DNA of 64,000 nucleotides. Source: an uncultured Lachnospiraceae bacterium. Lineage in GTDB: Bacteria; Bacillota; Clostridia; Lachnospirales; Lachnospiraceae. Shown one piece after another: positions 10,198 through 36,486 of the stretch (positions are counted from its first letter, which is position 1; each line of letters starts with the position of its first letter). The notes under the pieces are model-generated. The model did not search any database. It had not been told where the DNA came from and was given only the letters and a program-made list of their open reading frames with translations. Location of the stretch: NCBI GenBank assembly GCA_902797025.1, contig CADBRN010000016.1:723-64722 (forward strand), read 5' to 3'. Made by a program: the position numbers and the translations under genes.

Positions 10198-10201
10198 ACT
10201 G

Positions 10202-22000: not shown

Positions 22001-23588
22001 CGACCTGCTCCCGGAGCGAGTCGATCGGCGGATTCGTCACCTGCGCGAAAAGCTGCTTGAAATAGTGAAAAATCGGCTGGTGTTTTTCAGACAGAACCGC
22101 AAGCGGAATGTCATGTCCCATCGACGCGGTCGCCTCGACCCCGTTCATCGCCATCGGAAGAATGTTGTCCTTCACATCCTCGTTGGTATACCCGAATACC
22201 TTATACAGCTTGTCCCGCATCTCCTGTGTGTGGGTGCTGATCTTCTTATTCGGGATCTCGAGCTCATCGAGATGGAGCAGATTCCGGTCCAGCCACTCGC
22301 CGTACGGCTCCCGTGTCGCGTAATACTCCTTGCACTCCGTATCGGAGATGATGCGCTTCTGCTTCGTATCTACGAGAAGCATGCGGCCAGGCTGAAGTCT
22401 TGATTTTTCAACAATGTGCTCCGGTTCAATATCCAGAACCCCGACCTCCGAAGAGAGAATCAGCCGGCTGTCATCGGTGATGTAATAGCGCGACGGACGC
22501 AGTCCGTTCCGGTCAAGCGTCGCACCCGCGATATCTCCGTCCGTGAAAAGGATCGCGGCAGGGCCGTCCCAGGGTTCCATCATTGTCGCATAGTAGTGGT
22601 AGAAATCCTGACGTTCGCGGTCCATGAATGAGTTATGCTTCCAGGGCTCCGGAATCGTGACCATCATCGCCAGAGGCAGATCCGTTCCGTTCATATACAG
22701 AAACTCCAGCGTGTTGTCGAGCATCGCAGAGTCCGATCCGGACGCTTCGATCACCGGGAGAATCTTATCCATATCATCCTCCATGATCGGGGATGTCATC
22801 GTCTCCTCGCGGGCGAGCATACGGTCGCTGTTTCCCCGGATCGTATTGATCTCGCCGTTGTGTGCGATCATGCGGTACGGATGTGCCCGGCGCCAGCTCG
22901 GCGTGGTATTCGTCGAAAATCTCGAGTGCACGAGCGCGATCGCGGTTTCGTAGGACGGATCCTGAAGATCTTCATAAAAATCACGCAGCTGCCTCACGAG
23001 AAACATTCCTTTGTAAACGATGGTTCTCGATGAGAGCGAGCAGATATACGTGTCCTCTGAGCTCTTCTCGAACTCGCGTCTTGCCACATACAGAAGCCGG
23101 TCAAAATCGATGCCCCGCGCGCAGCCGTCCGGCCGTGCGATGAACGCCTGCTCGATCTCCGGCATACAGTCCCTGGCAACCTGCCCCAGAATTTCCGGAT
23201 GAGTCGGAACCTTCCTCCATCCGAGAAAATCCAGACCGTTCTTCTGTACGATCACCTCGAACATTCTTTTGGCGAGCGTGCGCGGAAGCGTCTCCCGCGG
23301 CAGGAAAAACATGCCGATTCCGTAATCCCGCGCATCCGCCAGCTCAATCCCGTCATCCGCGGCCGCCTTCTTGAAAAATTTATGGGAAATCTGCGTAAGA
23401 ATACCGACGCCGTCGCCGACCTTTCCGGTCGCGTCCTTTCCGGCGCGATGTTCAAGCTTCTCGACGATATGGAGCGCGTCGCCGAGCGTTCCGTGGCTCG
23501 CGTGACCGTCGATATTGACGATCATGCCGATTCCGCACGCGTCGTGGTCCATCTTTTCTATATTAACTGATTGCGGCACTTTCATCAT
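19035..23588 (-). CDS. gltB: Glutamate synthase large subunit
   Basis: About 1517 aa. It has the Ntn amidotransferase start DACGIGMIVN, an FMN/3Fe-4S central domain, and a C-terminal GXGXG repeat domain (GNVALYGATSG, GDHGLEYMTGG). I trimmed the start to the ATG at 23588, after GGAGAAGAG. Confidence 0.95.
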   Translation of the reverse strand: MMKVPQSVNIEKMDHDACGIGMIVNIDGHASHGTLGDALHIVEKLEHRAGKDATGKVGDGVGILTQISHKFFKKAAADDGIELADARDYGIGMFFLPRETLPRTLAKRMFEVIVQKNGLDFLGWRKVPTHPEILGQVARDCMPEIEQAFIARPDGCARGIDFDRLLYVARREFEKSSEDTYICSLSSRTIVYKGMFLVRQLRDFYEDLQDPSYETAIALVHSRFSTNTTPSWRRAHPYRMIAHNGEINTIRGNSDRMLAREETMTSPIMEDDMDKILPVIEASGSDSAMLDNTLEFLYMNGTDLPLAMMVTIPEPWKHNSFMDRERQDFYHYYATMMEPWDGPAAILFTDGDIAGATLDRNGLRPSRYYITDDSRLILSSEVGVLDIEPEHIVEKSRLQPGRMLLVDTKQKRIISDTECKEYYATREPYGEWLDRNLLHLDELEIPNKKISTHTQEMRDKLYKVFGYTNEDVKDNILPMAMNGVEATASMGHDIPLAVLSEKHQPIFHYFKQLFAQVTNPPIDSLREQVVTDTTVYIGSDGNLLKDKSDNCTVLEVNQPILTGVDLLKIKSLDQPGFRTAVISLLYYKNTSLEKALEQLSISVDRAYAKGYNIIILSDRGVDENHMPIPSLLAVSSVEQHLVRTKKRTQVSLILESGEPRDVHQCATILGFGARAINPYLAHECIAELIDTGILDKDYHTAIGDYNNALLGGIVKTAAKMGISTLQSYQSARIFEAVGLSKEVIDRYFTGTVSRVGGIGLNEIAEGVTFRHNHAFDPLGLGVDTTLDSIGNHKLLSGKDKEDHLYNPMTIITLQQAVREGSYEKFKLYTSMVDSDLPHTLRGLMKFVPQQDPVPIDEVEPASEIVKRFKTGAMSFGSISPEAHETMAVAMNTLGGKSNTGEGGEDPSRFGTIRNSAIKQVASGRFGVTSAYLNSAKEIQIKMAQGAKPGEGGHLPGMKVYPWVAKTRHSTPGVSLISPPPHHDIYSIEDLAQLIYDLQNANRDARINVKLVSEAGVGTIASGVAKAGAQVILISGYDGGTGAAPLSSIHNAGLPWELGLSETHQTLIENNLRSRVVLETDGKLMSGRDVAIAALLGAEEFGFATAPLVSMGCMMMRVCSKDTCPVGIATQNETLRRRFRGKPEHVMNFMLFIAEELREIMAKLGFRTVDEMVGRCDCLAPKDQQITKRASMVDLSVILNQKYAHATERHFVPEKRYDFHLERTVDESVILPALERAMQKIAASPVIGLDGTKETIRVKVKGTDRAVGTITGSEITKRFGSSLPEDTFVVQCEGSGGQSFGAFAPKGLTLKLKGDANDGFGKGLSGGKLVLTPPDGTTFKPEENIIVGNVALYGATSGKAYFTGVAGERFCVRNSGATAVVEGCGDHGLEYMTGGRAVILGNTGKNFAAGMSGGIAYVLDEKHDLYRKLNKQMVSLEEVTEKYDISELRDILTDYVKETDSALGRKILNDFDGYLPSFKKIVPHDYQKMLKAISKFEEQGIPYEKAELEAFNLVTGAC

Positions 23589-23630
23589 TTTCTCTTCTCC
23601 TCTTCTGGCGGTTGTCGCGGACTCCTTCGA

Positions 23631-23670
23631 TAAAAAAGCGGGCAAAAGCGACGTAAGCATACCCGCTTAC
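23631..23670 (-). promoter_or_regulatory. gltB leader: terminator hairpin overlapping an alternative hairpin (candidate attenuator)
   Basis: Minus-strand RNA: GTAAGC-gggtat-GCTTAC shares its AAGC with AAGCGGG-N19-CCCGCTT, which is followed by TTTTTAT. The two structures are mutually exclusive. Confidence 0.5.
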
Positions 23671-23713
23671 AAAAAAGACGCCTTTGTCCGCTCTTCGTTT
23701 TCTTATCGGCAAA

Positions 23714-23742
23714 ATGGTATCACCACACGCTTAGTATGTCAA
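23714..23742 (-). promoter_or_regulatory. Candidate sigma-A promoter of gltBD
   Basis: On the minus strand: TTGACA-17 nt-TACCAT, about 125 nt upstream of the gltB ATG. Confidence 0.5.
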
Positions 23743-23870
23743 GAAATAATTTCAGTTGTGATGGCAATAACATTTTCATATAGATCGCCCCGTTCTTCCT
23801 TTTGTGTTAGAATGAAGCTTGTAACGTACGAACCGGCGCCGGCGGAAAGGGCGTCTGAGGGAGGAAAACC

Positions 23871-24353
23871 ATGGGGAATAAAAAAAACAGCCGGATCACT
23901 CCGGCTTCTCTGAAAACAATATCGGCTGTCATCTCCGCTTTTCTTGCGGTCTGCTTTTTTCTTCCGGCGTACCACTACCATATGCCGGACTTCGACCGGA
24001 CGATCTCCTTCTTCCGTGTCGTGTTTCCGGGCACGGCGGACTCCGTCTTCACGGGGCACTCCGCGTTCGTGTTTCTTCTGATCCTTCCCGTCGCTATGAT
24101 CGTACTGCCGTTCTTCCGGAACCGGGGAAGCGACTCATTCCGGGTCGTCCTTCCCCTCGCAGTCGTCTATTTCTTCGTCCTGATGGCGATCATCAATCAG
24201 TTTCAGGAGATCCGGGATCTGCTCCGGACCGGCATCGTCGTCCTCGGAAGCTCCGGATCCTCTCACGCGGGTCCCGCCTTCGGAAGTATCGCGGCGGCCG
24301 CCGGATCTGTCGCTCAGATCGCCGTCGGCATCGCGTACCTCCGCTGCCGGTGA
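23871..24353 (+). CDS. Hypothetical integral membrane protein (160 aa, about 4 TM helices)
   Basis: Strong SD (GAGGGAGGAAAACC-ATG) and hydrophobic segments. I recognise no family. Confidence 0.6.
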   Translation: MGNKKNSRITPASLKTISAVISAFLAVCFFLPAYHYHMPDFDRTISFFRVVFPGTADSVFTGHSAFVFLLILPVAMIVLPFFRNRGSDSFRVVLPLAVVYFFVLMAIINQFQEIRDLLRTGIVVLGSSGSSHAGPAFGSIAAAAGSVAQIAVGIAYLRCR

Positions 24354-24358
24354 TCCCG

Positions 24359-24916
24359 TCACATGATCGCCATCGTCAGAATCATCTGAGCCGTCTCCAC
24401 CATGCTGCGTCCCGTATCCATACTGGTTTTCTGCATGTAGCGGTATGCTTCATCCTCGGTCATGTGATTTCGTTCGATCAGAACAAGTTTCGCGTTGTTG
24501 ATGTAATTTTCATCGCGCTCGCTCCTTACGCGCTTCGCTCTTTTCGCCGCTTTTGAAAGTCTCCGCTCGACCGTGTCCATCATCATGTTCACTGTTTCGA
24601 TAAACTCGTGAACCTTCACGGGCATGGTGACCGCGATCACATCCGTCTCACGTCCGGTGCTGATACCGGCACCGGAATCAAGTAAAAGCATATCAAAATT
24701 TTCCGGAAGAAAATCAAGAAGATCTGTATAATGCATATCCGCAAGAGCCATCGGACTGATCACGATGCCTCCGTCTCTTCTCCCCGTCTCCTGCAGAACC
24801 TCCGAACCTGTGGTAATCAGCATCACATCGCTGTATCCGTGACGGTTCAGCAGATCCCGGATCCGTGACGCGGTCTTTTGCTTGCCGGCAGGAAAGGCAA
24901 TAATTATCACGCTCAT
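24359..24916 (-). CDS. ANTAR-domain RNA-binding antiterminator with a degenerate receiver-like N-terminal domain (NitR-like)
   Basis: C-terminal NNAKLVLIERNHMTEDEAYRYMQKTSMDTGRSMVETAQMIL is an ANTAR helix bundle. The N-terminal approximately 110 aa has a receiver-like beta-alpha pattern, but I see no DD pair or phosphoacceptor Asp. It lies immediately downstream of glnA, and GGAGG precedes its ATG. Confidence 0.8.
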   Translation of the reverse strand: MSVIIIAFPAGKQKTASRIRDLLNRHGYSDVMLITTGSEVLQETGRRDGGIVISPMALADMHYTDLLDFLPENFDMLLLDSGAGISTGRETDVIAVTMPVKVHEFIETVNMMMDTVERRLSKAAKRAKRVRSERDENYINNAKLVLIERNHMTEDEAYRYMQKTSMDTGRSMVETAQMILTMAIM

Positions 24917-24947
24917 GCTTCATTCCTCCTGCGCGCTGTACCGGTCA

Positions 24948-26234
24948 TCAGATTTCCTGCAGATATTCCCGGATTTCCCAGTCCGTGACCTCTCTGGAGT
25001 AGCGCTCCCACTCGCTCATCTTCTCTTTGATGTACATATCGGCATACCGCCCGCCGCACACGCCGCGCAGGAACGCGTCATCCTCAAAAGCGCTCACGGA
25101 TTCGCGCAGGGTCGCAGGGAGTGTTCCGATCTTCTCATCCTCCGGAACCGGCTTCGCACCGCGCAGGATCCCGTCGACCCCGGAAGCGATCGCCATCGCG
25201 ATCGTGAGATACGGATTTGCCGCTCCGTCCGGAAGCTTCCACTCGATGCTCACGCCGCCGTTGTCATTTTTCACGATGCGGAGCGGCGCATAGTAATCCG
25301 TCGTCGACCAGAACAGTTCGGTCGGCGCGAAGAACCGTGCTTTCAGCCGCTTATAGGAATTGATGATCGGATTCGAGAACGCGGCGATGCCGTTCTGGTG
25401 TTCCATAATTCCGGTCACAAAGGAAAGCGCCTCATCACTGTACCAGCGTTTTTCGTCGCCCGCAAAAAGATCCTTTCCGTCCTTTTTCAGGGAGATTGTG
25501 AAGGCCATGGCCGATCCCATCAGATCGGTCCGCGGTTTCGGCATGAAGGTCGCGTGCAGGCCGTGGCGCTCCGCAACCGTGCGGATCGTGGCGCGAAATG
25601 TCTCGATCTGGTCCGCGACGCGGATTCCCTCACTCTGGCGGAAAACGACCGCGTGCTGCCCCGGAGCCGTCTCATGATTTGAGGACTCGATCTCAAATCC
25701 CATCTCCTCAAGCGTCAGTATCACATCGCGGCGCGCATTCTCTCCCTTGTCGAGCGGTGCGATATCAAGATACCCCGCCCGCTCGCCCGTGATCGTCGTC
25801 GGGCGGCCGTCCTCGTCATTCTGGAACAGAAAGAATTCACAGTTCGGCTTCAGATCGAAGCAAAATCCCTTTTCCGATGCCTGCTTCATCACATTCACAA
25901 GGATGGAGCGCGAACCGTCCGGGATCGGATCGCCGTTCTCATCGTTCAGGCGGCAGAGGAACCGGGCGACCTTTCCGTGCTGCGGTCTCCAGGGAAGGAT
26001 GGAGAACGTGTCAAAATCCGGCTGAAGATAAAAGCTGTTGTATCCGAGATAATTCATTCCCCGGATGTGGAAGCCGTCGACACGGCATTTGCCGGCGAGC
26101 GCCTTGCCGATCTGTCCCGCGGTGATCGCGATGTTTTTCAGTTCCCCGAAAAAATCAACGAACTGGAGGCGGATAAATTTCACATCTTCCTCATCGATCA
26201 TCTGAATGATTTCCTGTGCCGTATACTTTGCCAT
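24948..26234 (-). CDS. glnA: Glutamine synthetase, type I (short form)
   Basis: VKFIRLQFVDFFGELKNIAI beta-grasp N-terminus. The catalytic domain has HATFMPKP and NPYL motifs. 428 aa. Confidence 0.9.
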   Translation of the reverse strand: MAKYTAQEIIQMIDEEDVKFIRLQFVDFFGELKNIAITAGQIGKALAGKCRVDGFHIRGMNYLGYNSFYLQPDFDTFSILPWRPQHGKVARFLCRLNDENGDPIPDGSRSILVNVMKQASEKGFCFDLKPNCEFFLFQNDEDGRPTTITGERAGYLDIAPLDKGENARRDVILTLEEMGFEIESSNHETAPGQHAVVFRQSEGIRVADQIETFRATIRTVAERHGLHATFMPKPRTDLMGSAMAFTISLKKDGKDLFAGDEKRWYSDEALSFVTGIMEHQNGIAAFSNPIINSYKRLKARFFAPTELFWSTTDYYAPLRIVKNDNGGVSIEWKLPDGAANPYLTIAMAIASGVDGILRGAKPVPEDEKIGTLPATLRESVSAFEDDAFLRGVCGGRYADMYIKEKMSEWERYSREVTDWEIREYLQEI

Positions 26235-26265
26235 TTCGATCCTCCTGTTTTCTCATACTCATGAT

Positions 26266-26327
26266 CCAAAAGCGGCAGGGCCTTTCATGGGGCCGCTTTG
26301 CCGGCCTTAAAAAGTCTCTGCCGCTTA
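26266..26327 (-). promoter_or_regulatory. Structured terminator-like element in the 113-nt pyrG-glnA spacer (candidate regulated attenuator)
   Basis: Minus-strand RNA: the 3' arm CTGCCGCTT, followed by TTGG, can pair with either of two upstream copies, AAGCGGCAG or AAGCGGC. An internal hairpin GGCCG-gcaaag-CGGCC is also possible. Only about 35 nt remain between this element and the glnA ATG, which leaves no room for a promoter. Confidence 0.5.
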
Positions 26328-26347
26328 CCGGACGGTCACAAAACGAC

Positions 26348-27979
26348 TTACTGTGCCTTTCTCTCCTTCGCCGCGCCGATCAGTCCCGCGAAAAGTGGAT
26401 GCGGGCGGTTCGGTCTGGACTTAAACTCCGGATGTCCCTGCGTTCCGACGAAATACGGATGCTCCCGGATCTCGATCATCTCGACGATCCGATTGTCCGG
26501 AGAGGTTCCCGCGATCATCATGCCGTTGTTCTCAAAGGCCTCCCGGAAATCGTTATTCACCTCATAGCGGTGCCTGTGGCGCTCCGAGATTTCCTTCTGT
26601 CCGTACAGCTGATACGATTTCGATTTTTCGTTCAGGATACACGGATAAGCGCCCAGGCGCATCGTTCCTCCGAGATCCTCGACGTCCTCCTGCTCCGGCA
26701 TGAGATGAATCACCGGATGAAGGGTATCCGGCGAGAGTTCCGCGCTGTTCGCGTCCCGGTATCCGAGCACGTCCCGCGCAAACTCAACGATCGCCATCTG
26801 CATCCCCAGGCAGATGCCGAGGAAGGGAATTTCCTTTGTTCTGGCGTACCGCGCGGCCTCGATCATGCCCTCGGTTCCGCGCTCTCCGAATCCGCCCGGG
26901 ATCAGGATACCGTCGACGCCGTCCAGATACTCCGACGCGAGCTCGTCCGGACTCTTTTCCCCGCTGCGTTTCTGCTCCAGGTCCTCAGAATCGACCCAGC
27001 GTATTTTTACATTGACACGATGTGCGATTCCCCCGTGCTTCAGCGCTTCGACGACCGAAAGATAAGCGTCGTGAAGCTGCGTGTATTTTCCGACAATCGC
27101 GATCTCGACGTCGCCTTTTGAAGAATACATCGCGTCGACCATCGCCGTCCAGTTCGCGAGATCCGGTTCCGGACAGTCGATATGCAGACACTCGCAGACC
27201 GCCTGCGCGAGGTGTTCCTTCTCCATGGCCAGCGGACACTCATACAGATATTTCACGTTCAGATTCTGAAGGACATGGCGGGACGGCACATTACAGAACA
27301 GTGCGATCTTGTCGCGGATATCCTCCGACATCGGCTCCTCGGACCGGCAGACCAGAATATCCGGCTGAATCCCGAGACCCTGGAGCGCCTTGACACTCGT
27401 CTGGGTCGGCTTTGTCTTGAGCTCGCCCGACGCATGAAGATACGGAAGCAGCGTGACATGGACCAGAATCACATTCTCGCGGCCCAGCTCCCACTGAAAC
27501 TGGCGGATCGCCTCGAGAAACGGCTGGCTCTCGATGTCGCCGACCGTACCGCCCACCTCGATGATCGCGATGCGTTCCTCCTCCGGATTTGAAGGACGGA
27601 AAAACCGGGATTTGATCTCATTTGTGATGTGCGGGATGACCTGAACCGTCCCGCCGCCGTAATCGCCGTGACGTTCCTTGTTCAGAACCGACCAGTATAT
27701 TTTTCCGGAAGTCACATTCGATTTGTAATCAAGACTCTCATCGATAAAACGCTCATAATGACCGAGATCCAGATCGGTCTCCGTTCCGTCGTCCGTGACG
27801 AACACCTCGCCGTGCTGAATCGGGTTCATCGTACCCGGATCCACATTGATATACGGATCGAATTTCTGCATCGTCACACGGTAGCCGCGCGCCTTCAGCA
27901 GGCGGCCGAGGGACGCTGCGGTAATTCCCTTTCCGAGTCCGGAAACAACTCCGCCCGTCACAAATACATACTTGGTCAT
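26348..27979 (-). CDS. pyrG: CTP synthase (glutamine-hydrolysing)
   Basis: [30 protein letters not shown]-terminus, GICLGMQ triad-amidotransferase Cys, and HRHRYE. The start overlaps the purF stop (ATGA). Confidence 0.95.
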
Positions 27980-29403
27980 TCTTTTACTCCTCTCATGTGA
28001 TCTTCAACCGGAAGTCTCGTCGGATATTTTGCGTCAAAGCAGGCTGCACAGATGTCGGAATGTCCGGACATCTCAGGAAGGTCTTCGATCCTCATATAGG
28101 CAAGAGAATCCGCCCCGATGATCCTGCGTATCTCCTCCTCCGAATGGGAGGATGCGATCAGCTGCTGATTTGACGGAACGTCGGTGCCGTAATAGCACGG
28201 ATGCAGGAAAGGCGGCGCGCTGATCCGCACGTGTACCTCCTTCGCACCGGCCTGTTTCAGCATCGTGATCAGGTTTGCCATCGTCGTGCCACGGACGATC
28301 GAATCATCCACGAGCACGATCCGCTTTCCACGGACCGCCGGCTCCAGGACGGAGAGTTTCAGCTTCACACTCGTCTCACGCTCTTCCTGGGTCGGTTTGA
28401 TAAAGGTCCTTCCGATATAACTGTTCTTATAGAAAATGATTTCAAAAGGAATCTGCGCGCCGAGAGCATATCCTCTCGCAGCGGCAAGGCCGGAATCCGG
28501 TACGCCTGCGACGATATCCGCTTCGGCCGGGTGCGTCCTTGCAAGAATTTTTCCGGCCCGGATTCTCGCGTCATAGACGGAGACACCGTCGATCGTGCTG
28601 TCGAGCCGCGCGAAGTAGATATATTCGAACACACACCGGGCGTGATGCTCCTGCGCGAGCTCCATATCGGAAAAAACATCGTCCCGCGTGATCGTCAGGA
28701 TCTCCCCCGGTTCCACATCCCGGAGAAATTTCGCCCCGACCGCCTGAAGCGCACAGCTTTCGGAGGCGACGACATACGTATTGCCCCTCACTCCGATACA
28801 CAGAGGCTTCAGACCGAGCGGGTCGCGGACCGCGATCAGCTTTCTGGGACTGCGCACCACAAGGGCGAAACCTCCTTCGAGCCGTTTCGCCGCTGCTTTG
28901 ACCGCCGCCTCGATACTCGGCGTGCGGACGCGTTCCCTCGCGATGAGATACGCGATCAGCTCGGAATCGGTCGTCGTGTGAAAGATCGCGCCGGAATATT
29001 CAAGTTCATGGCGGATCTCTGCCGTGTTGACAAGATTTCCGTTGTGCGCCAGCGCGAGTGTTCCCTTGACATAATTCAGAACGAGCGGCTGCGCGTTCTC
29101 ACGGTTCGGCGCTCCGGTCGTCGAATAGCGGCAGTGACCGATCCCGATATTGCCATGAAGGCGGTCCAGATCCTTCTTTTTAAACACCTCGCTGACGAGA
29201 CCGAGATCTTTATGATACAGATTATTGTTCGGCGGCTCATTCGTATCGGCTACTGCGATGCCGCACGATTCCTGTCCTCTGTGCTGAAGCGAGCAGAGGC
29301 CATAATAAATAAGAGGTGCGACATTTCCGCCGTCTCTGTCATAAGCACCGAAAACACCGCACTCTTCTCTCACACCATGCTGTTCATACTCGAGTTGCTG
29401 CAT
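27976..29403 (-). CDS. purF: Amidophosphoribosyltransferase (glutamine PRPP amidotransferase)
   Basis: Propeptide followed by CGVFGAY (Ntn Cys), RGQESCGI, and the PRPP loop [12 protein letters not shown]. Confidence 0.95.
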
Positions 29404-29466
29404 ATTTTCTCCCGTTCGATCGATCGTGCATCGGTCAACCTGTGATCAGCCACCCTGCATTTGAAA

Positions 29467-29510
29467 CAAAAAAAGGGCGGCATTGTCCCACAGACATTGA
29501 CGCCATTGCC
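29467..29510 (-). promoter_or_regulatory. Terminator-like hairpin with a U7 tract in the purF-pyrG leader
   Basis: Minus-strand RNA: GGCG-u-CA-a-UGUC-uguggG-ACA-a-UG-c-CGCC followed by CUUUUUUUG. It lies about 65 nt upstream of the purF ATG and downstream of a TTTACA-17-TACTAT promoter candidate (29570-29598). Confidence 0.45.
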
Positions 29511-29629
29511 AAACTCCACATAACCAATCACAATAATAATCAGGCGCTTCCGCGCTCAGTACAGATAAAATAGTACAGCAAATCCGATTTCTTGTAAATA
29601 GCACTTCAAAAAAATAATGGCGGGAAATA

Positions 29630-29657
29630 TTGACAAGCTCCGGATTGCGTGTATACT
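29630..29657 (+). promoter_or_regulatory. Candidate sigma-A promoter upstream of asnB
   Basis: TTGACA (29630-29635), a 16-nt spacer, then TATACT (29652-29657). Confidence 0.5.
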
Positions 29658-29669
29658 AAGAACAAAAGC

Positions 29670-29707
29670 AAGGGCGCTTTGGTCATTCGACCGAAGCGCC
29701 TTTTTTT
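29670..29707 (+). terminator. Strong intrinsic terminator about 12 nt downstream of the asnB promoter (leader attenuator or tiny RNA)
   Basis: AAGGgCGCTTTGGTC-attc-GACCGAAGCGCCTT followed by TTTTTTTATTT. The stem is roughly 14 bp with one bulge and one G-U pair. Confidence 0.65.
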
Positions 29708-29769
29708 ATTTGTCCGACGCATACATATAAGAAAAATAAGAAAGCAGAAAATTTGAGGAGGAACCTGTT

Positions 29770-31356
29770 ATGTGCTCAATTTTAGGATATTGCGGATCTA
29801 CCGCTTCCATGGAGGCGGTCGCCGGGGCGTTGTCCGCAACCGATTCGAGAGGACCGGACGACAGCAGAATCATCGATACAGGAAATGGATTTCTCGGTTT
29901 CAACCGTCTGGCCATCATGGGACTCACGGCTTCAGGAATGCAGCCGTTCACCCGGGAGGACGGAAGCGCCGTCGTCTGCAACGGCGAGATTTACGGGTTC
30001 CGGCCGGTCAAAGAGCTGCTTGAAAAAGAAGGCTATACCTTTGAGAGCGACAGCGACTGTGAGATTCTTCTTCCGATGTACGAGCGGCAGGGTACGGATA
30101 TGTTCCGCTGGCTCGACGCGGAATTCGCTCTTGTCCTCTATGATGCAAAAAGTGATTCCTACGTCGCGGCGCGGGACCCGATCGGGATCCGCCCTCTGTA
30201 CTACGGTTATGATAAAGAGGGAACGATCGTATTCGCTTCCGAGCCGAAGAACCTCGTGGAGCTGGTCGACAAAATCTTCCCGTTCCCGCCCGGTCACTAC
30301 TATAAAGACGGGAAATTCGTATGTTACCGTGATCTGTCCGATGTCCGGGAATATTCCCATGACAGTATGGATGTAATCGCGAAAAATATCCGTACGAAGC
30401 TCGTGAAGGGCGTTGAGAAACGGCTTGACGCGGACGCCCCGGTCGGATTTCTTCTGTCCGGCGGCCTTGATTCGTCCCTGGTCTGCGGCATCGCGGCAAA
30501 GTACCTGGACCGTCCGATCCGCACGTTCGCGATCGGCATGGACATCGACGCCATCGACCTGAAATACGCGCGCGAGGTTGCCGATTACATTCACAGTGAC
30601 CACACCGACGTCATCATCACAAAGGACGACGTCATCGGCGCACTGGAACCGGTCGTCAAACTGCTCGCAACGTATGATATCACCACGATCCGCGCTTCGA
30701 TCGGAATGTATCTGGTCTGCAAATACATTCACGAGAACACCGATATCCGCGTTCTTCTCACCGGAGAAATCTCCGATGAACTGTTCGGATATAAATATAC
30801 CGATTTCGCGCCGAGTGCGGAAGCCTTCCAGAAAGAAGCGGAAAAACGGGTGCGCGAACTGCATATGTACGACGTGCTCCGGGCGGACCGCTGCATCAGC
30901 GTCAACAGTCTGGAAGCACGCGTTCCCTTCGGTGATCTTGATTTCGCCGATTACGTCATGCACATCGAGCCGGAGAAGAAGCTGAACCGCTATAAAAAGG
31001 GAAAATACCTGCTCCGCCACGCCTTTGAGGGCGCGGACGTCATCCCGTATGACATCCTGATGCGCGAAAAGGCCGCGTTCTCGGACGCGGTCGGACATTC
31101 GCTCCGCGATGACCTGCAGGAATACGCGGAGAGTATGTACACCGACGGGGAGTACGAGACACTCCGCAGGAAATATACACACGCAACGCCGTTCACAAAA
31201 GAATCGCTTCTGTACCGCGAGCTTTTCGAGAAATACTATCCCGGACAGTCGCAGATGATTGTGGATTTCTGGATGCCGAACAAGAGCTGGGAAGGCTGCG
31301 ATGTCAACGACCCGTCCGCCCGTGTTCTCTCCAACTACGGTGCAAGTGGCAAATAA
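29770..31356 (+). CDS. asnB: Asparagine synthetase (glutamine-hydrolysing)
   Basis: MCSILGY (Ntn Cys2) and the FLLSGGLDSS PP-loop. 528 aa. GGAGG lies 8 nt upstream of the start. Confidence 0.9.
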   Translation: MCSILGYCGSTASMEAVAGALSATDSRGPDDSRIIDTGNGFLGFNRLAIMGLTASGMQPFTREDGSAVVCNGEIYGFRPVKELLEKEGYTFESDSDCEILLPMYERQGTDMFRWLDAEFALVLYDAKSDSYVAARDPIGIRPLYYGYDKEGTIVFASEPKNLVELVDKIFPFPPGHYYKDGKFVCYRDLSDVREYSHDSMDVIAKNIRTKLVKGVEKRLDADAPVGFLLSGGLDSSLVCGIAAKYLDRPIRTFAIGMDIDAIDLKYAREVADYIHSDHTDVIITKDDVIGALEPVVKLLATYDITTIRASIGMYLVCKYIHENTDIRVLLTGEISDELFGYKYTDFAPSAEAFQKEAEKRVRELHMYDVLRADRCISVNSLEARVPFGDLDFADYVMHIEPEKKLNRYKKGKYLLRHAFEGADVIPYDILMREKAAFSDAVGHSLRDDLQEYAESMYTDGEYETLRRKYTHATPFTKESLLYRELFEKYYPGQSQMIVDFWMPNKSWEGCDVNDPSARVLSNYGASGK

Positions 31357-31401: not shown

Positions 31402-31450
31402 AGATGGGGACTGCACCGGTCTTTCAGAGACCGGTCAGTCCCCATCTTTT
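31402..31450 (+). terminator. asnB terminator; also faces the 3' end of the LRR gene
   Basis: AGATGGGGACTG-ca-CCGGTCT-ttcag-AGACCGG-t-CAGTCCCCATCT followed by TTTT. Confidence 0.75.
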
Positions 31451-31461
31451 GCACTGCCGGA

Positions 31462-32760
31462 TCAGAGTGAAAAATCAAATTCACGCGGCGCCAGTGCCCG
31501 GTGTTTATAATCCATCAACTCCGCCATCACCTCTTTCGCGGATCCGGACGCGGCCTCAGACGCGGCACCGATCAGGCTGTCTGCGTTCTCATCCGTCACC
31601 ATGCCCAGTGATTCCAGTTTTTTCAGCAGTCTGGTGTTGTTTTCTTTCGCGAGCATCGCGATGATTTCCCGGATATGCCCGGACAGAATCGTCCGGAATG
31701 CGGCGGCTGTCTCCTCCGCGAGGTCAACCGGGTATTCCAGACGGCTGCAGATCATCCGGACGCGGTCGGTATTGACGTGCAGACTCTGAAGTTCCCGGTC
31801 GCAAAATCTGAAATCATAGAGTTTTCCATTGACCCCGAACTGCCTGAGCAGTCCCTTCAGAAGGTACGTATCGGTCTGCGGAAAACAGATCTCCAGTCCG
31901 CAGAGACATACTTCGGTCATCGAACAATCTGCAAACGCATCCTCACCGATCTCCCTGACGCTTCCCGGTATCTCCACGCGGCGGATCTCCGACCGGAGAA
32001 AAGCCTCGGAGGCAATTCGCGTCACCCCTTCACGGATCCGGTACGTGCCGCACCTTCCCAGATACCGGAACAAAGTCATCCCGTCCGGATCTTTCCGGTA
32101 CAGAACCGGTCCGTCGGCGAAAAAGCGCGGATTTTCTTCCGCGACGCCGATCCTCCGGATCCCCGGATTCTTCGAGAACGGATTTTTCACGTTTGAAAAA
32201 GTTCCTTCGCGGATTTCCACGAGAGATGCCGGGATGTGAACCTCCTCCAGCGTCTCCAGACCGGAAAAGGCATCGTGCGCGATCGACTCCGTCCCTTCCG
32301 GGATTATAAAACGGTTTCCCGGATCGTGCGGATCGGCCAGAATCAGTTCCCTGCCGTGGAACAGGCCGTATCGGTCGCTTCGATAAAAACGGTTTCGCGG
32401 ATCGATTTCAAGATGGCAGGGAAGTTCCCTCCCAACGCCGATTTTTACGACGGTTGACGGGATTTTTACGTGAGACAGTGCCGTCGCCGTGAAAGCATCT
32501 TCACCGATTTCCAGAAGCCCCTCGGAAAGGATCAGTTCACTCAGGCTGATACACAGTTCAAACGCATGCGGCCCGATCCTCCGGACCTCCGGCGGAACCT
32601 CGATGCGCACCGTTTCCATCGCCTCCCCGTAGAAGGCGCGCGTTCCAATGGCGCGCACCGGAAGTCCGCCGATCGTCCCGGGTATTTTCACGATGCGCCC
32701 TGCGCCGTGGCAGAACGTCACCCGGACACCGTCGCCGTACGTCTCAAAATCAAACTGCAT
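31462..32760 (-). CDS. Cytoplasmic leucine-rich-repeat protein (BspA/LRR_5 type) with a non-LRR C-terminal tail
   Basis: Repeated units such as KIPGTIGGLPVRAIGTRAFYG, EVPPEVRRIGPHAFELC, KIPSTVVKIG, HIPASLVEIREGTFS and EIPGSVREIGEDAFADC. No signal peptide or TM segment. GAGAGG lies upstream of the ATG. The gap to the AAA+ gene is 19 nt. Confidence 0.7.
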   Translation of the reverse strand: MQFDFETYGDGVRVTFCHGAGRIVKIPGTIGGLPVRAIGTRAFYGEAMETVRIEVPPEVRRIGPHAFELCISLSELILSEGLLEIGEDAFTATALSHVKIPSTVVKIGVGRELPCHLEIDPRNRFYRSDRYGLFHGRELILADPHDPGNRFIIPEGTESIAHDAFSGLETLEEVHIPASLVEIREGTFSNVKNPFSKNPGIRRIGVAEENPRFFADGPVLYRKDPDGMTLFRYLGRCGTYRIREGVTRIASEAFLRSEIRRVEIPGSVREIGEDAFADCSMTEVCLCGLEICFPQTDTYLLKGLLRQFGVNGKLYDFRFCDRELQSLHVNTDRVRMICSRLEYPVDLAEETAAAFRTILSGHIREIIAMLAKENNTRLLKKLESLGMVTDENADSLIGAASEAASGSAKEVMAELMDYKHRALAPREFDFSL

Positions 32761-32779
32761 ACCGACCTCTCATCTGTTC

Positions 32780-34297
32780 TCAGAACTCCCCGAACGCCTG
32801 TGCCTCCCGCATCAGGCTTCCGCCGCGTTCACTGAGCATGAATTTCCTGTTGAACTTATAGTATGGTTCGCATCCGTGATCCGCAATAAACCTCGCGCTT
32901 CGCTTTCCGACCGTCAGATTCGTCACGAGTACCAGCATCTCATTTCCGACCCCGAAGTTTTCTTCGACGAAGCGGAACAGATTGTCCAGCTCGCCGCTGA
33001 TCTCCCTCTGGCGTGTCTTCATCTTCTCAACACGCGAAGCAAAATCACCGCTCACGAGTGCGAACGCAGCTTCCTGATCCGCCGGTTTTTCCAGACGCAG
33101 CTTCTGAAGTGCAGCCGCGGCGAAAGAGATCGGATAAGCAAAACTTCTCTGCTGCTGCTCGGTCAGCGCGTTCGCCGCCTCCGCCTTCTTCATCTGCGCG
33201 CGGCTGGATCCGGCGATCGTTTCAAGTTCCATCTCCATCGTATCCGAGGGATCCTCACGGAGCGCCGACTTCGCCGCGGCCAGACTTCCGTGAAGTTTTT
33301 TCAGGCTCTCCTCCGTCTCGACCTCCTCGTTGATCTCGGGAAGCAGCGCTTCCATCAATAGTCCCATGATCGTGATCCGCTCATCAAACGACGCGCTCTG
33401 TGCCCTGCGGCGCACCTCCGCGCTTTCGCGGCCGTGGAGGATCTCGTCGACCTCATAATCCGTCCGGTATTTATTGTACAATTCGTAATATGTGGAGAAC
33501 TCCGCGCAGATCCGCGGATCGTGGAGATACTGTCCGATCAGTGTCTCATCGACCGGAAATCCCATCTCCTCATAGAGTCCGATCGCCTTTGACAGATCTT
33601 CCCATCCGCGAGCGGTCACATACTGCTTTCCGTCGACGGTTGTCCCGATATGATAGAAATCCTCATTCCGGATCTCCAGCCATGTCAGGATCGAGCGGTG
33701 AACGCCGGCCGTCTCCGCATATTTTTTCCAGGATTCAAAATCAGGCTCGACGGTCATGACCTTCAGACGGTCCAGCGTGGCGATATCGAATTCCCGCGCG
33801 GAACGATTGAACTCCGGCGGATTGCCTGCGGTCACAATGACCCATCCCTCCGGAACCTTCCGGTTTCCGAAGGTTTTGTACTGCAGGAACTGAAGCATCG
33901 ACGGCCCGAGCGTCTCAGAAACACAGTTGATTTCGTCCAGAAAGAGAATTCCTTCTCTTTTCCCGCTTTTCTCCATCGTATCGTAGACCGACGCGATGAT
34001 CTCGCTCATCGTATACATGGAGACGTCAATCTCCTCATCCCCGTATTGTTTTTTCACGATAAACGGAAGTCCGAGGGCGCTCTGACGTGTATGATGTGTC
34101 ATTGAATACGATACAAGCGCGATGTCCATCTCCCGGGCGACCTGCTCCATGATCGCGGTCTTTCCGATTCCCGGCGCGCCGAGCAGGAAAACCGGCCGCT
34201 GCTGCACCGTCGGAATCCGGTAATTTCCATACTCATCCTTCGCGAGGTAGATGGAGACTGCCTGCCTGATCTGCTGCTTTGCTTCTGCGATATTCAT
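32780..34297 (-). CDS. MoxR/AAA_5-type AAA+ ATPase with a long helical C-terminal extension
   Basis: Walker A is VFLLGAPGIGKTAI and Walker B is ILFLDEIN, followed by VIVTAGNPPEFN. I trimmed the start to the ATG at 34297 (MNIAEAKQQIRQ). Confidence 0.8.
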   Translation of the reverse strand: MNIAEAKQQIRQAVSIYLAKDEYGNYRIPTVQQRPVFLLGAPGIGKTAIMEQVAREMDIALVSYSMTHHTRQSALGLPFIVKKQYGDEEIDVSMYTMSEIIASVYDTMEKSGKREGILFLDEINCVSETLGPSMLQFLQYKTFGNRKVPEGWVIVTAGNPPEFNRSAREFDIATLDRLKVMTVEPDFESWKKYAETAGVHRSILTWLEIRNEDFYHIGTTVDGKQYVTARGWEDLSKAIGLYEEMGFPVDETLIGQYLHDPRICAEFSTYYELYNKYRTDYEVDEILHGRESAEVRRRAQSASFDERITIMGLLMEALLPEINEEVETEESLKKLHGSLAAAKSALREDPSDTMEMELETIAGSSRAQMKKAEAANALTEQQQRSFAYPISFAAAALQKLRLEKPADQEAAFALVSGDFASRVEKMKTRQREISGELDNLFRFVEENFGVGNEMLVLVTNLTVGKRSARFIADHGCEPYYKFNRKFMLSERGGSLMREAQAFGEF

Positions 34298-34365
34298 TTC
34301 CGAAATCCTTTCTGTAAACGATATTGATGCGGGACGTGCCCGCCGGCGTGATCCATCACGGCGTC

Positions 34366-35742
34366 CTAAATCCGGTCGGTGTCCGAAATGGCCAGATCCT
34401 CCTCCGCCACGTCCAGACGGATCGCCCATGGCGGTACATTCTTTATGTGCTGACGCGTCTTCAGAAATACAAATCCCGTTTTATACGGCGGCATCTTCGA
34501 CGGAAACGTTCCGAGACCGTCCGTGAAGTACAGAAGACCGCACAGCTCATGCATCCCGCCCTTTTTCTGAAGCTCTTCGACATAATCGAACACCGGCCGG
34601 AAATCCGTCCCGCCTCCGCCGCTGATCTCCACTTTTTTCAGATAGCGGTCAAATTCCTCCGGCGAGCTCAGCTTATCATCCTTCTGGATCTTCGCATCGC
34701 ACTGAATGATGTGCACCGCCGCGTGCGCGAAAAAATCTCCCGACTCCTCCAACACCGAAGCGGTGTGCGAGAGGAAGTTCCGCACCGTCCGTCCCATCGT
34801 CGATCCGGACGTATCGATCGCGATCACAAAATCACGGATCCGATTCGTGTCGCGGTACTCGAGCGGTTCGATCAGCGGCATGTTTTTGTAGAGCTGCATC
34901 CCGTACAGATAGTAGATATAATCAAACTCATCCGGATTGATATGCATCTCCTCATTCCACGTAAGAAATTTCCGCAGAAACGATGAATAGTCGTAGCGGC
35001 TTCGGCGGGCATTCAGAATATTGTCCGTCATCACGTCCGGAAGATCCCCCTGATGTTTCTCATACGTGTCCATCAGGATCTTCGTCCCCCGCGTGATGCG
35101 CCCCCATTCTTCCCCGGTTTTCTCGAAACTTCCGATGTTTCTGTGGAGCACCTCCGGATGGTTGATAAACTCCTCCGGGGCCCAGAAGCGGTGTACGTCC
35201 CGCACAAACAGCGGCGCACTTCCAAGAAGCGTCTCCGTTTCCTTCGGATTCATGTAAAAATAATGGTACAGGTTCTCCGCGGTGATCTTTCCGGCGCGCA
35301 GCTTCAGTTCGCCGATGAAGCGGATACGTTCCCGGTCCCCCGCGGTCCGGAGCAGATCCCAGTTCAGCTCAAGCATCACATTTTCGACTGCGAGATCCGC
35401 CGCAAAATCCCAGTATCGGGAATTCAGCCGGTCATAGTGGAACGGATGCTGAAAAATACAGTGCAGAAGCATATGAAGATAAATCCTCGGCAGAAGCCCC
35501 TCTTCCCGGCGAAAGCATGCGATCACCTGATTTTCATCGCAGATGATCCGGCTTCCGTTCGTGCCGAATCCCTCCGGCCGCTTCATTTTTTCAAAGCCGT
35601 TGTGATAAAAAACGACCGGCATTTTCAATACCGCCCGGTTGAAATACGGCATATTTACGATCAGCTGATCCCGCGTGTAATCAAAAATCTTCCGGGCCAG
35701 CTTCTTCGCATAAATTTCTTTTCCATCGTCATGATCTGCCAT
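34366..35742 (-). CDS. VWA-domain protein with a DUF2201-like putative metallopeptidase N-domain (HExxH degenerate)
   Basis: The N-domain reads RIYLHMLLHCIFQHPF, so the Glu of HExxH is replaced by Met. The C-terminal VWA has a MIDAS-like motif, FVIAIDTSGST. I trimmed the start to the ATG at 35742, after GGAGGTG. Confidence 0.75.
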   Translation of the reverse strand: MADHDDGKEIYAKKLARKIFDYTRDQLIVNMPYFNRAVLKMPVVFYHNGFEKMKRPEGFGTNGSRIICDENQVIACFRREEGLLPRIYLHMLLHCIFQHPFHYDRLNSRYWDFAADLAVENVMLELNWDLLRTAGDRERIRFIGELKLRAGKITAENLYHYFYMNPKETETLLGSAPLFVRDVHRFWAPEEFINHPEVLHRNIGSFEKTGEEWGRITRGTKILMDTYEKHQGDLPDVMTDNILNARRSRYDYSSFLRKFLTWNEEMHINPDEFDYIYYLYGMQLYKNMPLIEPLEYRDTNRIRDFVIAIDTSGSTMGRTVRNFLSHTASVLEESGDFFAHAAVHIIQCDAKIQKDDKLSSPEEFDRYLKKVEISGGGGTDFRPVFDYVEELQKKGGMHELCGLLYFTDGLGTFPSKMPPYKTGFVFLKTRQHIKNVPPWAIRLDVAEEDLAISDTDRI

Positions 35743-35949
35743 AACCGGCACCTCCGGGCTGAAAATCCAAGTCATCCGCCTCTTCCGCACAATCGCAGAA
35801 GGATCAGATTCTGTTATCATACCATGATTCCGGGAAAACTCACACCGCTTTAGGACAATCGGCGCAAAATGTCGTACCGCACGCGCAGCCTCTGTTGACG
35901 CTTCTCCGGACGGCTGATATAATCAGCAGATATGATCAAACAATTGTAA

Positions 35950-36486
35950 ATGAGCGGTACGGAAATGGAAAAATATGAACTTTCACTGCCGGAAAAAATC
36001 ATCATGGTATTAATCTACCTGATCCTCCCGGCGCTTATATTTGCGATCATTCTTTCAGCGGTCACCCACGGCAGGGTCTACTTCGGCTGGCTGATTCTTC
36101 TGGGAATCATCGCGGCGATGTACCTTACGGGCGGATTGTCGATGGTAACCGTCCCTGTCCGCTACCGCGAGCAGAAGACCGTGGTCTTTCTTCATTACAA
36201 AACATACATGGTGAAAAACGGTATCATCGCCGCCGGCCGGTACCTGCGGAATTATCCGGTCTTCATACTGATGGAAAGCGGAAAAAATCTCCGCACGGAG
36301 GCGATCGGTCCCGTCCGGGTTTCGGAGATCGAAAACCGTTTCCGGGAACACGGTTCCTGTCAGGTCTGGATCGATCCGAAAAAACCGTCCCGCTGCTGCA
36401 CCGACCGGGGACGCATCGTCTGCATCGGTGCGATTGAGCTGGCTGTCTGCGCCGCGCTGATCGTCCTGATTCTTGTTCTTATCTGA
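35950..36486 (+). CDS. Hypothetical membrane protein (3 TM helices)
   Basis: A TTGACG-17-TATAAT promoter lies about 30 nt upstream. The protein has hydrophobic N- and C-terminal helices and no recognisable family. The start is uncertain (35950 or 35965). Confidence 0.55.
   Translation: MSGTEMEKYELSLPEKIIMVLIYLILPALIFAIILSAVTHGRVYFGWLILLGIIAAMYLTGGLSMVTVPVRYREQKTVVFLHYKTYMVKNGIIAAGRYLRNYPVFILMESGKNLRTEAIGPVRVSEIENRFREHGSCQVWIDPKKPSRCCTDRGRIVCIGAIELAVCAALIVLILVLI

Follow-up and report, generated by a model that had tools for sequence, protein, structure and literature searches.

The DNA considered here, called the window in what follows, is a stretch of 64,000 nucleotides (nt) from an uncultured Lachnospiraceae bacterium (assembly GCA_902797025.1, contig CADBRN010000016.1, positions 723–64,722 of the forward strand). 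Its minus strand carries three co-directional genes whose products are candidates for the parts of a single remodelling machine. Gene 1 (34366–35742, minus strand) encodes a VWA protein of 458 amino acids (aa), formed by an N-terminal degenerate zincin-like domain of the DUF2201_N type, a linker and a compact C-terminal VWA domain (DUF2201); gene 2 (32780–34297, minus strand) encodes an AAA+ ATPase of 505 aa that appears to be of the MoxR/dynein-like (AAA_5) kind; and gene 3 (31462–32760, minus strand) encodes a protein of 432 aa with a leucine-rich repeat (LRR) solenoid of the LRR_5 type followed by a helical tail, referred to below as the LRR-tail protein. The longest open reading frames (ORFs) of genes 1 and 2 reach further upstream, to 35820 and 34429, respectively. 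The shorter starts were adopted because three lines of evidence agree: independent gene calls made on public metagenome contigs of identical sequence likewise yield proteins of 458, 505 and 432 aa, the N-termini of the homologues match these starts in alignments, and a Shine-Dalgarno-like purine run precedes each of the three genes. The layout described in the initial annotation, i.e., three minus-strand genes separated by gaps of 68 nt (genes 1 and 2) and 19 nt (genes 2 and 3), with their sequence motifs and a terminal hairpin, was found in the sequence in all its parts.

The hairpin (31402–31450) is long and GC-rich, with a stem of approx. 19 bp and a predicted folding energy of −40.8 kcal/mol. 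Its position is the interval where the LRR and asnB genes converge; the operon strand has no T-run there, and the hairpin is probably a terminator that serves both genes. The other boundary is the divergent intergenic spacer upstream of gene 1 (35743–35949), which is the presumed site of the operon promoter. The description of this spacer as AT-rich was overstated, since its GC content is barely lower than that of the operon (49.8% versus 54.9%) and its best σ70 match (TTGACG-17-TATAAT) faces the divergent plus-strand gene that starts at 35950. The promoter of the operon was not identified in the spacer, and the single minus-strand σ70-like match, at 35971–35943, is weak (9 of 12 positions). 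Likewise, a scan of the operon and its leader against Rfam revealed no riboswitch or known RNA, only one spurious sub-threshold match to a miRNA at the hairpin.

Conservation of the three genes was evaluated by a pattern scan for relatives of the ATPase, taking one genome per species, and at least 523 species genomes were found to encode one. The 80 best loci, labelled as Lachnospiraceae, Oscillospiraceae, Acutalibacteraceae, Eubacteriaceae and others, were analysed; their neighbourhoods were established by tblastn and ORF calling with clustering, and mis-called loci were rescued by tblastn. The VWA gene adjoins the ATPase gene in nearly all of them. By ORF calling, the gene directly 3′ of the ATPase gene belongs to one cluster in 53 loci, and every protein of this cluster, that of the window included, matches LRR_5 (54/54); in several Oscillospiraceae the LRR gene lies instead between the VWA and ATPase genes, or 5′ of the VWA gene. 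Taken together, an LRR_5 gene is contiguous with the ATPase/VWA pair in approx. 72 of the 80 loci, whereas the more distant flanks, which add up to about 274 kb, contain a single gene of the LRR cluster. The trio is a real conserved operon that recurs far above chance, and the suggestion that an LRR gene is the conserved third partner of the AAA+/VWA pair was borne out. Five Oscillospiraceae-type loci (L048, L058, L063, L066 and L070) show the gene order VWA, LRR, ATPase, together with several extra LRR_5 genes around the pair, some of them devoid of the tail, i.e., a local LRR expansion. Four loci on contigs of metagenome-assembled genomes (MAGs), labelled as uncultured Bacteroides sp. (L018), Actinomycetes bacterium (L042), Bacillus sp. 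(L046) and Desulfocucumaceae (L068), encode ATPases 51–53% identical to that of the window in a typical Lachnospiraceae-like synteny; these labels may reflect mis-binning or mislabelling rather than true taxonomic breadth.

The third gene is the most variable component of the operon. In the window, its solenoid (residues 1–290; 31891–32760, minus strand) is of the BspA type, and the Pfam scan matched LRR_5 (PF13306) in three stretches with an E-value of 3.3e-29 and 101.8 bits. The protein is expected to be cytoplasmic: its maximum 19-residue hydropathy is 1.32 and its N-terminus has no hydrophobic stretch, in agreement with the reported absence of a signal peptide or transmembrane (TM) segment. 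The same hydropathy scan detected no segment compatible with membrane insertion or export in any of the three operon proteins. The solenoid is followed by the helical tail (residues 291–432; 31465–31890, minus strand), which ends in EFDFSL-COOH and belongs to no Pfam family; a non-LRR tail had been described before, but it comprises 142 aa instead of about 130. Most proteins encoded by the third gene have around 300 aa and two or three LRR units, and the class to which the window protein belongs has around 430–500 aa. All share a C-terminal region, which terminates in FDFSL, DFFAGLSL or DAFSAFEL.

When the last 142 residues were used as a phmmer query, 88 clusters were recovered among 1.84 billion representative proteins, and in 85 of them the match was at the C-terminal end; LRR_5 was carried by 72 of the 75 tail-bearing proteins tested. 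Of the 81 sources scanned (the 80 loci and the window), 65 have an ORF in which a hidden Markov model (HMM) of the tail detected this domain. Precomputed Pfam matches were absent from tail-only fragments, and a profile made from the tail alignment retrieved mostly short fragments, with no new domain partners, from a database of 5.8 billion sequences. Judging from this distribution, the tail is the hallmark of the third gene and constitutes an unannotated domain family. In locus L075 (an uncultured Clostridia bacterium MAG, CALWPQ010000015.1), the gene after the ATPase (8553–10199) encodes a 548-aa ankyrin-repeat protein that bears the tail (hmmsearch E-value of 1.9e-10); as read from the domain content, nature has exchanged the repeat domain here and left the docking module constant. 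In addition, the tail is present in L042 on a non-LRR protein that is encoded divergently upstream, and in L054 a weakly tail-like non-LRR protein of 324 aa is encoded between the VWA and ATPase genes. Given that the tail is constant across LRR, ankyrin and other proteins, it is the invariant part of the third component and the solenoid its exchangeable part. Two other readings of the tail were tried and rejected. A homotypic adaptor domain in common with the ATPase extension or with the VWA protein was discarded, given that the hhalign probabilities were below 1%. Zincins process a family of peptides with an FxSxx-COOH end (PMC7159879); the tail end was not assigned to it, considering that its serine is at position −2, not −3, and that the protein is large.

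The product of gene 1 matches the VWA-like family PF09967 (DUF2201) with an E-value of 1.3e-13 and 51.6 bits, against a cut-off of 26.4. As regards the DUF2201_N-like region, the window protein itself has no match to PF13203 (DUF2201_N) at E ≤ 0.1, but this family is present in most gene 1 orthologues at 40–49% identity, its threshold is passed by orthologues at 43–49% identity (29.5 bits for P0129 and 49.4 bits for P0191), and the N-terminal domain can be aligned over its whole extent with two phage proteins that are strong members of PF13203, gp576 from Bacillus phage G (126.6 bits) and gp33 from Acinetobacter phage Presley (136.6 bits). In this alignment, LHMLLHCIFQH falls on AHEVLHPALGH of gp576 and MHELMHVVYKH of gp33. 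HMLLHCIFQH (35446–35475, minus strand) thus corresponds to the HExxHxxxxH position, with the three His kept and the catalytic Glu replaced by Met, because it aligns exactly on the HExxH of genuine PF13203 members, as had been proposed from the window alone. In the orthologues from the trio loci, the second residue of the motif is M, I, T, V, S, L or A, and Glu does not occur in any of the 44 sequences. On the other hand, H90, H94, H99 and a downstream WDxAxD..E motif are invariant in the family alignment.

To judge from these alignments, the loss of Glu is ancient and maintained. Because Glu is absent from all 44 orthologues while the three His are invariant, this pattern indicates a metal- or ligand-binding pseudo-enzyme, not decay. 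The protein is a DUF2201 homologue that fails the catalytic motif of its family, and the peptidase-like domain is predicted to be non-catalytic, as was suspected, from the family-wide absence of Glu. A separate observation concerns E120 (35383–35385, in WDFAADLAVEN), which is nearly invariant in the clostridial family, whereas the HExxH-bearing phage homologues carry asparagine at this position (..D-x-x-I-N); this residue could supply a further metal ligand or act as a general base that has changed its position.

Between the zincin-like and VWA domains lies an aromatic-rich linker (residues 264–296; 34855–34953, minus strand), EEMHINPDEFDYIYYLYGMQLYKNMPLIEPLEY, which is 69–72% identical in pairwise comparisons across the family, above both flanking domains, with many invariant columns. 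This segment was modelled by AlphaFold2 (AF2) with a predicted local distance difference test (pLDDT) score below 50, and it is missing from the phage homologues that were aligned. High conservation together with low pLDDT and absence from the phage homologues is the signature of an interaction peptide, so that this role is suggested for the linker. The VWA domain (34369–34842, minus strand) has a complete metal-ion-dependent adhesion site (MIDAS), formed by D310-x-S312-x-S314, T379 and D408; the DTSGS stretch reported earlier is translated from 34801–34815 (minus strand). All five residues are intact in the 45 sequences of the trio loci that were compared (45/45), so the description of the MIDAS-like motif as intact stands. 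In the AF2 model of the protein (pLDDT of 72) the VWA domain is compact, and Foldseek matched it with integrin I-domains and with the MIDAS domain of MDN1/Rea1; in the fold search, the full-length two-domain model matched phage proteins annotated as ‘metallopeptidase/VWA-like’.

Gene 2 encodes the putative motor. Its product scores above the Pfam cut-offs for PF00004 (AAA, 33.5 bits) and PF07728 (AAA_5, 32.1 bits, cut-off of 22); the match to PF20030 (bpMoxR) is under the cut-off (23.3 versus 27 bits), and AAA_3 did not match in this Pfam scan. From the AF2 model and the motifs, an AAA+ module (residues 1–300) and a C-terminal extension (residues 301–505) can be distinguished; the latter is well predicted and all-helical, as anticipated for the charged extension, but it is approx. 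200 aa long rather than 250. The translation shows the predicted Walker A, GAPGIGKT (34157–34180, minus strand; G40, P42, G43, G45, K46 and T47 invariant), and Walker B, ILFLDEIN (33926–33949, minus strand; I117–N124 invariant). The helix-2 insert region, YSMTHHTRQSALGLPF, followed by a β-hairpin (34019–34108, minus strand), hardly varies and presumably forms the pore element by which the partner is engaged; within this region, residues Y64–P78 do not vary among 63 ATPase sequences, and the same is true for K46, D121/E122, N159, R177 and R230. The motifs ..NP.E.. and ..LDR.. of MoxR proteins were used to assign residue roles; with roles given by motif position, Walker A, Walker B, sensor 1, the arginine finger and sensor 2 all appear to be present.

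The AF2 model of the ATPase (pLDDT of 83) has β-hairpins at residues 80–93, after helix 2, and 141–147, before sensor 1. Its best compact matches found with Foldseek were the NorQ hexamer and the NorQ-NorD VWA complex, alongside AAA modules of dynein; the top matches have a TM-score of 0.54–0.58 on the target, and generic AAA+ proteins are approx. tenfold weaker in E-value. When the Protein Data Bank was searched by sequence, with single proteins and with profiles, the ATPase gave matches only at the level of the P-loop, and the VWA protein none. The assignment of the ATPase to the MoxR type is supported by its fold, near NorQ and dynein, and by the invariant residues, but the Pfam signal is weak and that of bpMoxR is sub-threshold. 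The label is then reasonable, not strongly proven, considering the weak AAA_5 match and the match of the modelled fold to NorQ and dynein.

The genes around the operon are of the housekeeping kind. On one side of it the window contains the genes for glutamate synthase (GOGAT; large subunit, 19035–23660), glutamine synthetase (24948–26234), CTP synthase (pyrG, 26348–27979), PurF (27976–29403, overlapping pyrG by 4 nt) and asparagine synthase (asnB, 29770–31356, convergent with the LRR gene); on the other, those for a small membrane protein, a transporter of the CDF family, HtrA, an LCP protein and YbbR. The run from 19035 to 31356 is devoted to glutamine and nitrogen handling, and four of its five genes encode glutamine amidotransferases. 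The small, strongly hydrophobic protein encoded divergently from the operon (35950–36486, plus strand) has 178 aa in its longest ORF and 173 aa elsewhere, and no Pfam match; it is found beside the trio in relatives at 80–100% identity (L084–L087 and L090), not in more distant genomes. In other genomes the trio is flanked by genes for RelA/SpoT, an MBL hydrolase, TraX, RNase R, SmpB, UDP-glucose pyrophosphorylase, an epimerase, a GT4 transferase or dCMP deaminase. These flanking genes are stable within lineages and different between them, and relatives at 80–90% identity retain the order asnB, trio, small ORF, CDF transporter. No integrases, defence genes or phage context were seen in the flanks of the loci examined. 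In PADLOC-DB v2, the VWA and LRR proteins had no match, and the ATPase had only a P-loop-level match to IetA (E-value of 3e-5 over 57 residues).

The ratio of nonsynonymous to synonymous substitution rates (dN/dS), calculated against two relatives, was 0.04–0.06 for asnB, 0.06–0.07 for the ATPase, about 0.09 for the VWA protein and 0.16–0.26 for the LRR protein, the fastest-evolving part of the operon being the solenoid of gene 3 (0.19–0.25); given that dS is near saturation, these values are approximate. From these ratios, all three genes are functional and under purifying selection, the LRR protein being the freest to change, and no gene-wide positive selection was seen in any of them.

From these observations we propose, with moderate confidence, that the three products form a cytoplasmic remodelling machine of the MoxR-class AAA+/VWA kind, self-contained and equipped with a dedicated adaptor. 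The steps that follow are inferred: the formation of a ring, the binding partners, what the tail does and whether there is an external target. The intact Walker A and B motifs, the sensor and arginine residues and the NorQ-like fold suggest that the ATPase would form a ring, which would grip the VWA protein in the manner of NorQ and NorD, with the invariant helix-2 insert YSMTHHTRQSALGLPF as the pore and either the conserved aromatic linker EEMHINPDEFDYIYYLYGMQLYKNMPLIEPLEY or a loop of the VWA domain as the element held in it. The VWA protein would in turn offer two grips: the metal site of the MIDAS, which in this class takes an acidic group of the target, and the cleft of the dead zincin-like domain, which with three His and no Glu would bind rather than cut. 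The LRR-tail protein would act as the specificity subunit, its constant tail, which has an acidic-hydrophobic end (...D-F-x-F/L-S-L-COOH), docking it to the machine, maybe at the MIDAS site or at the dead peptidase cleft. The variable solenoid, with two to about ten LRR_5 units, or ankyrin repeats in one genome, would capture a cytoplasmic target, and ATP hydrolysis would pull or twist this target, resulting in its remodelling, assembly or disassembly, or in the insertion of a cofactor.

Several points weigh against this proposal. The contacts between the operon proteins rest on inference; the compact VWA domain of the AF2 model shows no obvious long ‘finger’ like that of NorD; the fold match to NorQ (E-value of 1e-6) is only about tenfold better than those to generic AAA+ proteins; the AAA_5 match of the ATPase is weak, and by sequence it detects no solved structure. 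Moreover, approx. 8 of the 80 loci have no recognisable third gene, no candidate target gene is conserved near the trio in these 80 loci, and the LRR-tail protein, instead of being an adaptor, could be the client.

This last possibility is the most serious of the alternatives, although we consider it doubtful. The AAA+/VWA pair would fold, assemble, disassemble or load with metal the LRR-tail protein or its oligomer, in the way that dedicated activases serve a single enzyme. The tight gene linkage is in accordance with this, as is the fact that long LRR proteins occur with the closest ATPases and short ones with the rest; no other conserved neighbour is fit to be the target, and the conserved C-terminal peptide could be a handle by which the machine pulls. 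Nevertheless, the number of repeats varies from two or three to about ten, ankyrin repeats replace them in L075 and the tail alone is constant, a pattern typical of a recognition module, not of a client that matters for its own function; furthermore, no cofactor or catalytic role is known for LRR or ankyrin solenoids. The constant tail and the exchangeable solenoid are therefore the main argument for an adaptor or sensor over a client. The initial annotation had left the LRR protein as either client or sensor, and the swappable solenoid favours the second option.

An intracellular immune or conflict system, in which the LRR protein would sense an invader protein and the MoxR/VWA pair would set a threshold or activate the response, seems improbable to us. 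LRRs are classic sensor modules, the LRR protein evolves the fastest of the operon, several LRR genes surround the pair in L048, L058, L063 and L070 (Oscillospiraceae), distant homologues of the pair exist in phages, and the ATPase has its sub-threshold match to bpMoxR. However, the operon has no effector domain and its sole enzyme-like domain is inactivated, PADLOC gave no match for the VWA and LRR proteins, the gene-wide dN/dS of the LRR protein (0.16–0.26) denotes purifying selection, and neither the third components nor the effector-after-vWA layout of the ternary conflict systems is found (PMC8195603, PMC7159879). The flanks consist of housekeeping genes whose order is stable within lineages rather than of defence islands or mobile elements; this vertically inherited, housekeeping context disfavours the part of the earlier interpretation that leaned towards a conflict system.

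The phage homologues require some comment, since the ATPase and the VWA protein have matches among the PHROG families (phrog_1297 and phrog_1314), and seven to nine records named ‘Bacteriophage sp.’ carry homologues at 35–50% identity. These records are UNVERIFIED faecal contigs of 4–15 kb. The longest, MT835935.1 (L083, 15126 bases), encodes a Mur ligase, DegV, an M18 aminopeptidase, a NUDIX protein, a radical SAM protein and an ABC exporter, and bears its own LRR-VWA-ATPase trio; because of its gene content, it is bacterial chromosome. MT837993, MT837836, MT837937, MT836813, MT839739 and MT838754 are sibling records. A phage origin based on these close database matches was thus rejected, the records being unverified fragments of bacterial chromosomes, and their mislabelling can mislead inferences of phage origin. 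Genuine phage homologues, which come from N4-like phages, phage G, Thermus phiFa and a Moorella phage, are 21–27% identical; the two that were aligned, gp576 of phage G and gp33 of Presley, keep an intact HExxH, and there is no annotated LRR gene at the two phage loci inspected. That the operon is cargo or a remnant of a phage or other mobile element, instead of a host function, is very unlikely: the PHROG matches and the ‘Bacteriophage sp.’ records suggest it, but the longest of those records is chromosomal, the genuine phage proteins are distant, the two aligned having HExxH and the two loci inspected no annotated LRR gene, the GC content of the operon resembles that of its surroundings, and relatives at 80–90% identity still have asnB and the CDF transporter in synteny with it. 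As a side observation, gp576 (L081:3968–5146), gp33 (L082:3746–4951) and phrog_1314 are labelled ‘HNH endonuclease’ in RefSeq and PHROGs; the two proteins clearly match PF13203 and PF09967, i.e., zincin-like and VWA domains with HExxH, and the label looks like a propagated mis-annotation.

Returning to the adaptor proposal, a more specific version can be formulated, which we regard as speculative and rather unlikely: the dead zincin would be the receptor for the ...D-F-x-F/L-S-L-COOH end of interchangeable solenoid adaptors (LRR, ankyrin and others). If this were true, the operon would encode a bacterial substrate-receptor-exchange AAA+ machine whose specificity is set by plug-in repeat proteins, with a logic like that of F-box or ClpS-type adaptors, and its target would be an important one in the cytoplasm of dominant gut Clostridia.

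MoxR/VWA pairs count among the AAA+ machines that are most widespread and least understood, and each of the few understood ones serves a single enzyme. The trio described here is fixed in hundreds of species of Lachnospiraceae and Oscillospiraceae, which are major members of gut and rumen communities. If the LRR-tail protein is an adaptor, the operon brings its own specificity subunit, with a constant docking tail and a variable solenoid, beside a peptidase domain that would have been inactivated once and then retained; this architecture gives a clean, testable case for how such motors find their targets. Two unannotated sequence families can also be defined: one is the tail domain, the other the subgroup of DUF2201_N that has lost Glu and has the aromatic linker. 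Cultured bacteria such as Lachnospiraceae bacterium FE2018, Pseudoflavonifractor capillosus and Eubacterium oxidoreducens carry the trio, and therefore experiments are feasible.

Neither a database model nor a publication that describes the trio, the tail or the Glu-less DUF2201_N subgroup was found in the databases and literature searched; nevertheless, several known systems have one or more features in common with it. The BspA-type surface proteins have the same PF13306 repeat type; in contrast, the LRR-tail protein has no signal peptide, anchor or TM segment by hydropathy, has a tail of its own, would reside in the cytoplasm and shares its operon with an ATPase gene. Midasin (Rea1) resembles the proposed machine in that a motor of the AAA_5 type cooperates with a MIDAS domain, which holds an adaptor-like ligand by an acidic residue, and modules of the dynein/midasin type and the MDN1 MIDAS domain were among the fold matches. 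However, Midasin is one giant polypeptide of eukaryotes in which six AAA modules are fused, it acts on the pre-60S particle, and no evidence of a link with the ribosome appeared in the analysis of this operon.

The vWA-MoxR ternary conflict systems (Kaur, Burroughs, Iyer and Aravind, 2020/2021) are also formed by a MoxR-like ATPase, a vWA protein and a third repeat or recognition protein. Their third components are VMAP, iSTAND, iSTAND2, TERNS3 or a β-propeller (PMC8195603), all absent here, where LRR_5 and the novel tail were found, with no other Pfam match. In addition, the VWA domain ends the protein at residue 458, there are no effector and no EAD or Death-like adaptor domains, the trio belongs to unicellular gut Clostridia in housekeeping contexts, and the bpMoxR score stays at 23.3 against the required 27 bits. 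With differences in third components, effectors, taxonomic range and genomic setting, the operon does not correspond to the ternary systems described so far.

The phage DUF2201 pairs (N4 gp24/gp25-like; PHROGs 1297 and 1314) share with gene 1 the layout of two domains (PF13203 plus PF09967), with matches of the full-length fold and of profiles, and in phage Presley the ATPase gene is also near the VWA-like gene. They differ in that gp576 and gp33 keep HExxH and do not have the aromatic linker, in that no LRR or tail gene is annotated at the two loci inspected, and in an identity of just 21–27%.

The systems that provide the closest guide are the activases NorQ-NorD and CbbQ-CbbO. That the pair is not an already characterised activase agrees with the absence of client genes of the known ones (CbbQO, NorQD, CoxDE and the chelatases) near the operon, whose neighbours are housekeeping and lineage-variable, with the lack of a specific NCBIfam or PADLOC model for its proteins, and with the literature searched. 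No client enzyme gene (NOR, i.e., nitric oxide reductase, Rubisco or CODH, carbon monoxide dehydrogenase) is near this operon, in contrast to NorQ-NorD and CbbQ-CbbO; the helical ATPase extension of approx. 200 aa, the dead zincin N-domain and the LRR-tail gene are further differences, and the similarity of this ATPase to the solved MoxR proteins is undetectable by HMMER. On the other hand, a helix-2 insert and a pre-sensor-1 hairpin occur in the AAA+ ATPases of both, the ATPase gene adjoins the gene of a protein with a C-terminal MIDAS-VWA domain and a separate N-terminal domain, and NorQ-NorD gave the best compact structural matches of the ATPase model. In NorQD, as studied by cryo-EM, a finger of the VWA partner enters the ring pore, which is lined by the helix-2 inserts, and the C-terminus of the partner makes contact with the post-sensor-1 loop (PMC13036017). 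The mechanism put forward in that work combines this finger-in-pore binding with grips of the MIDAS and the N-domain on the target (PMC13036017).

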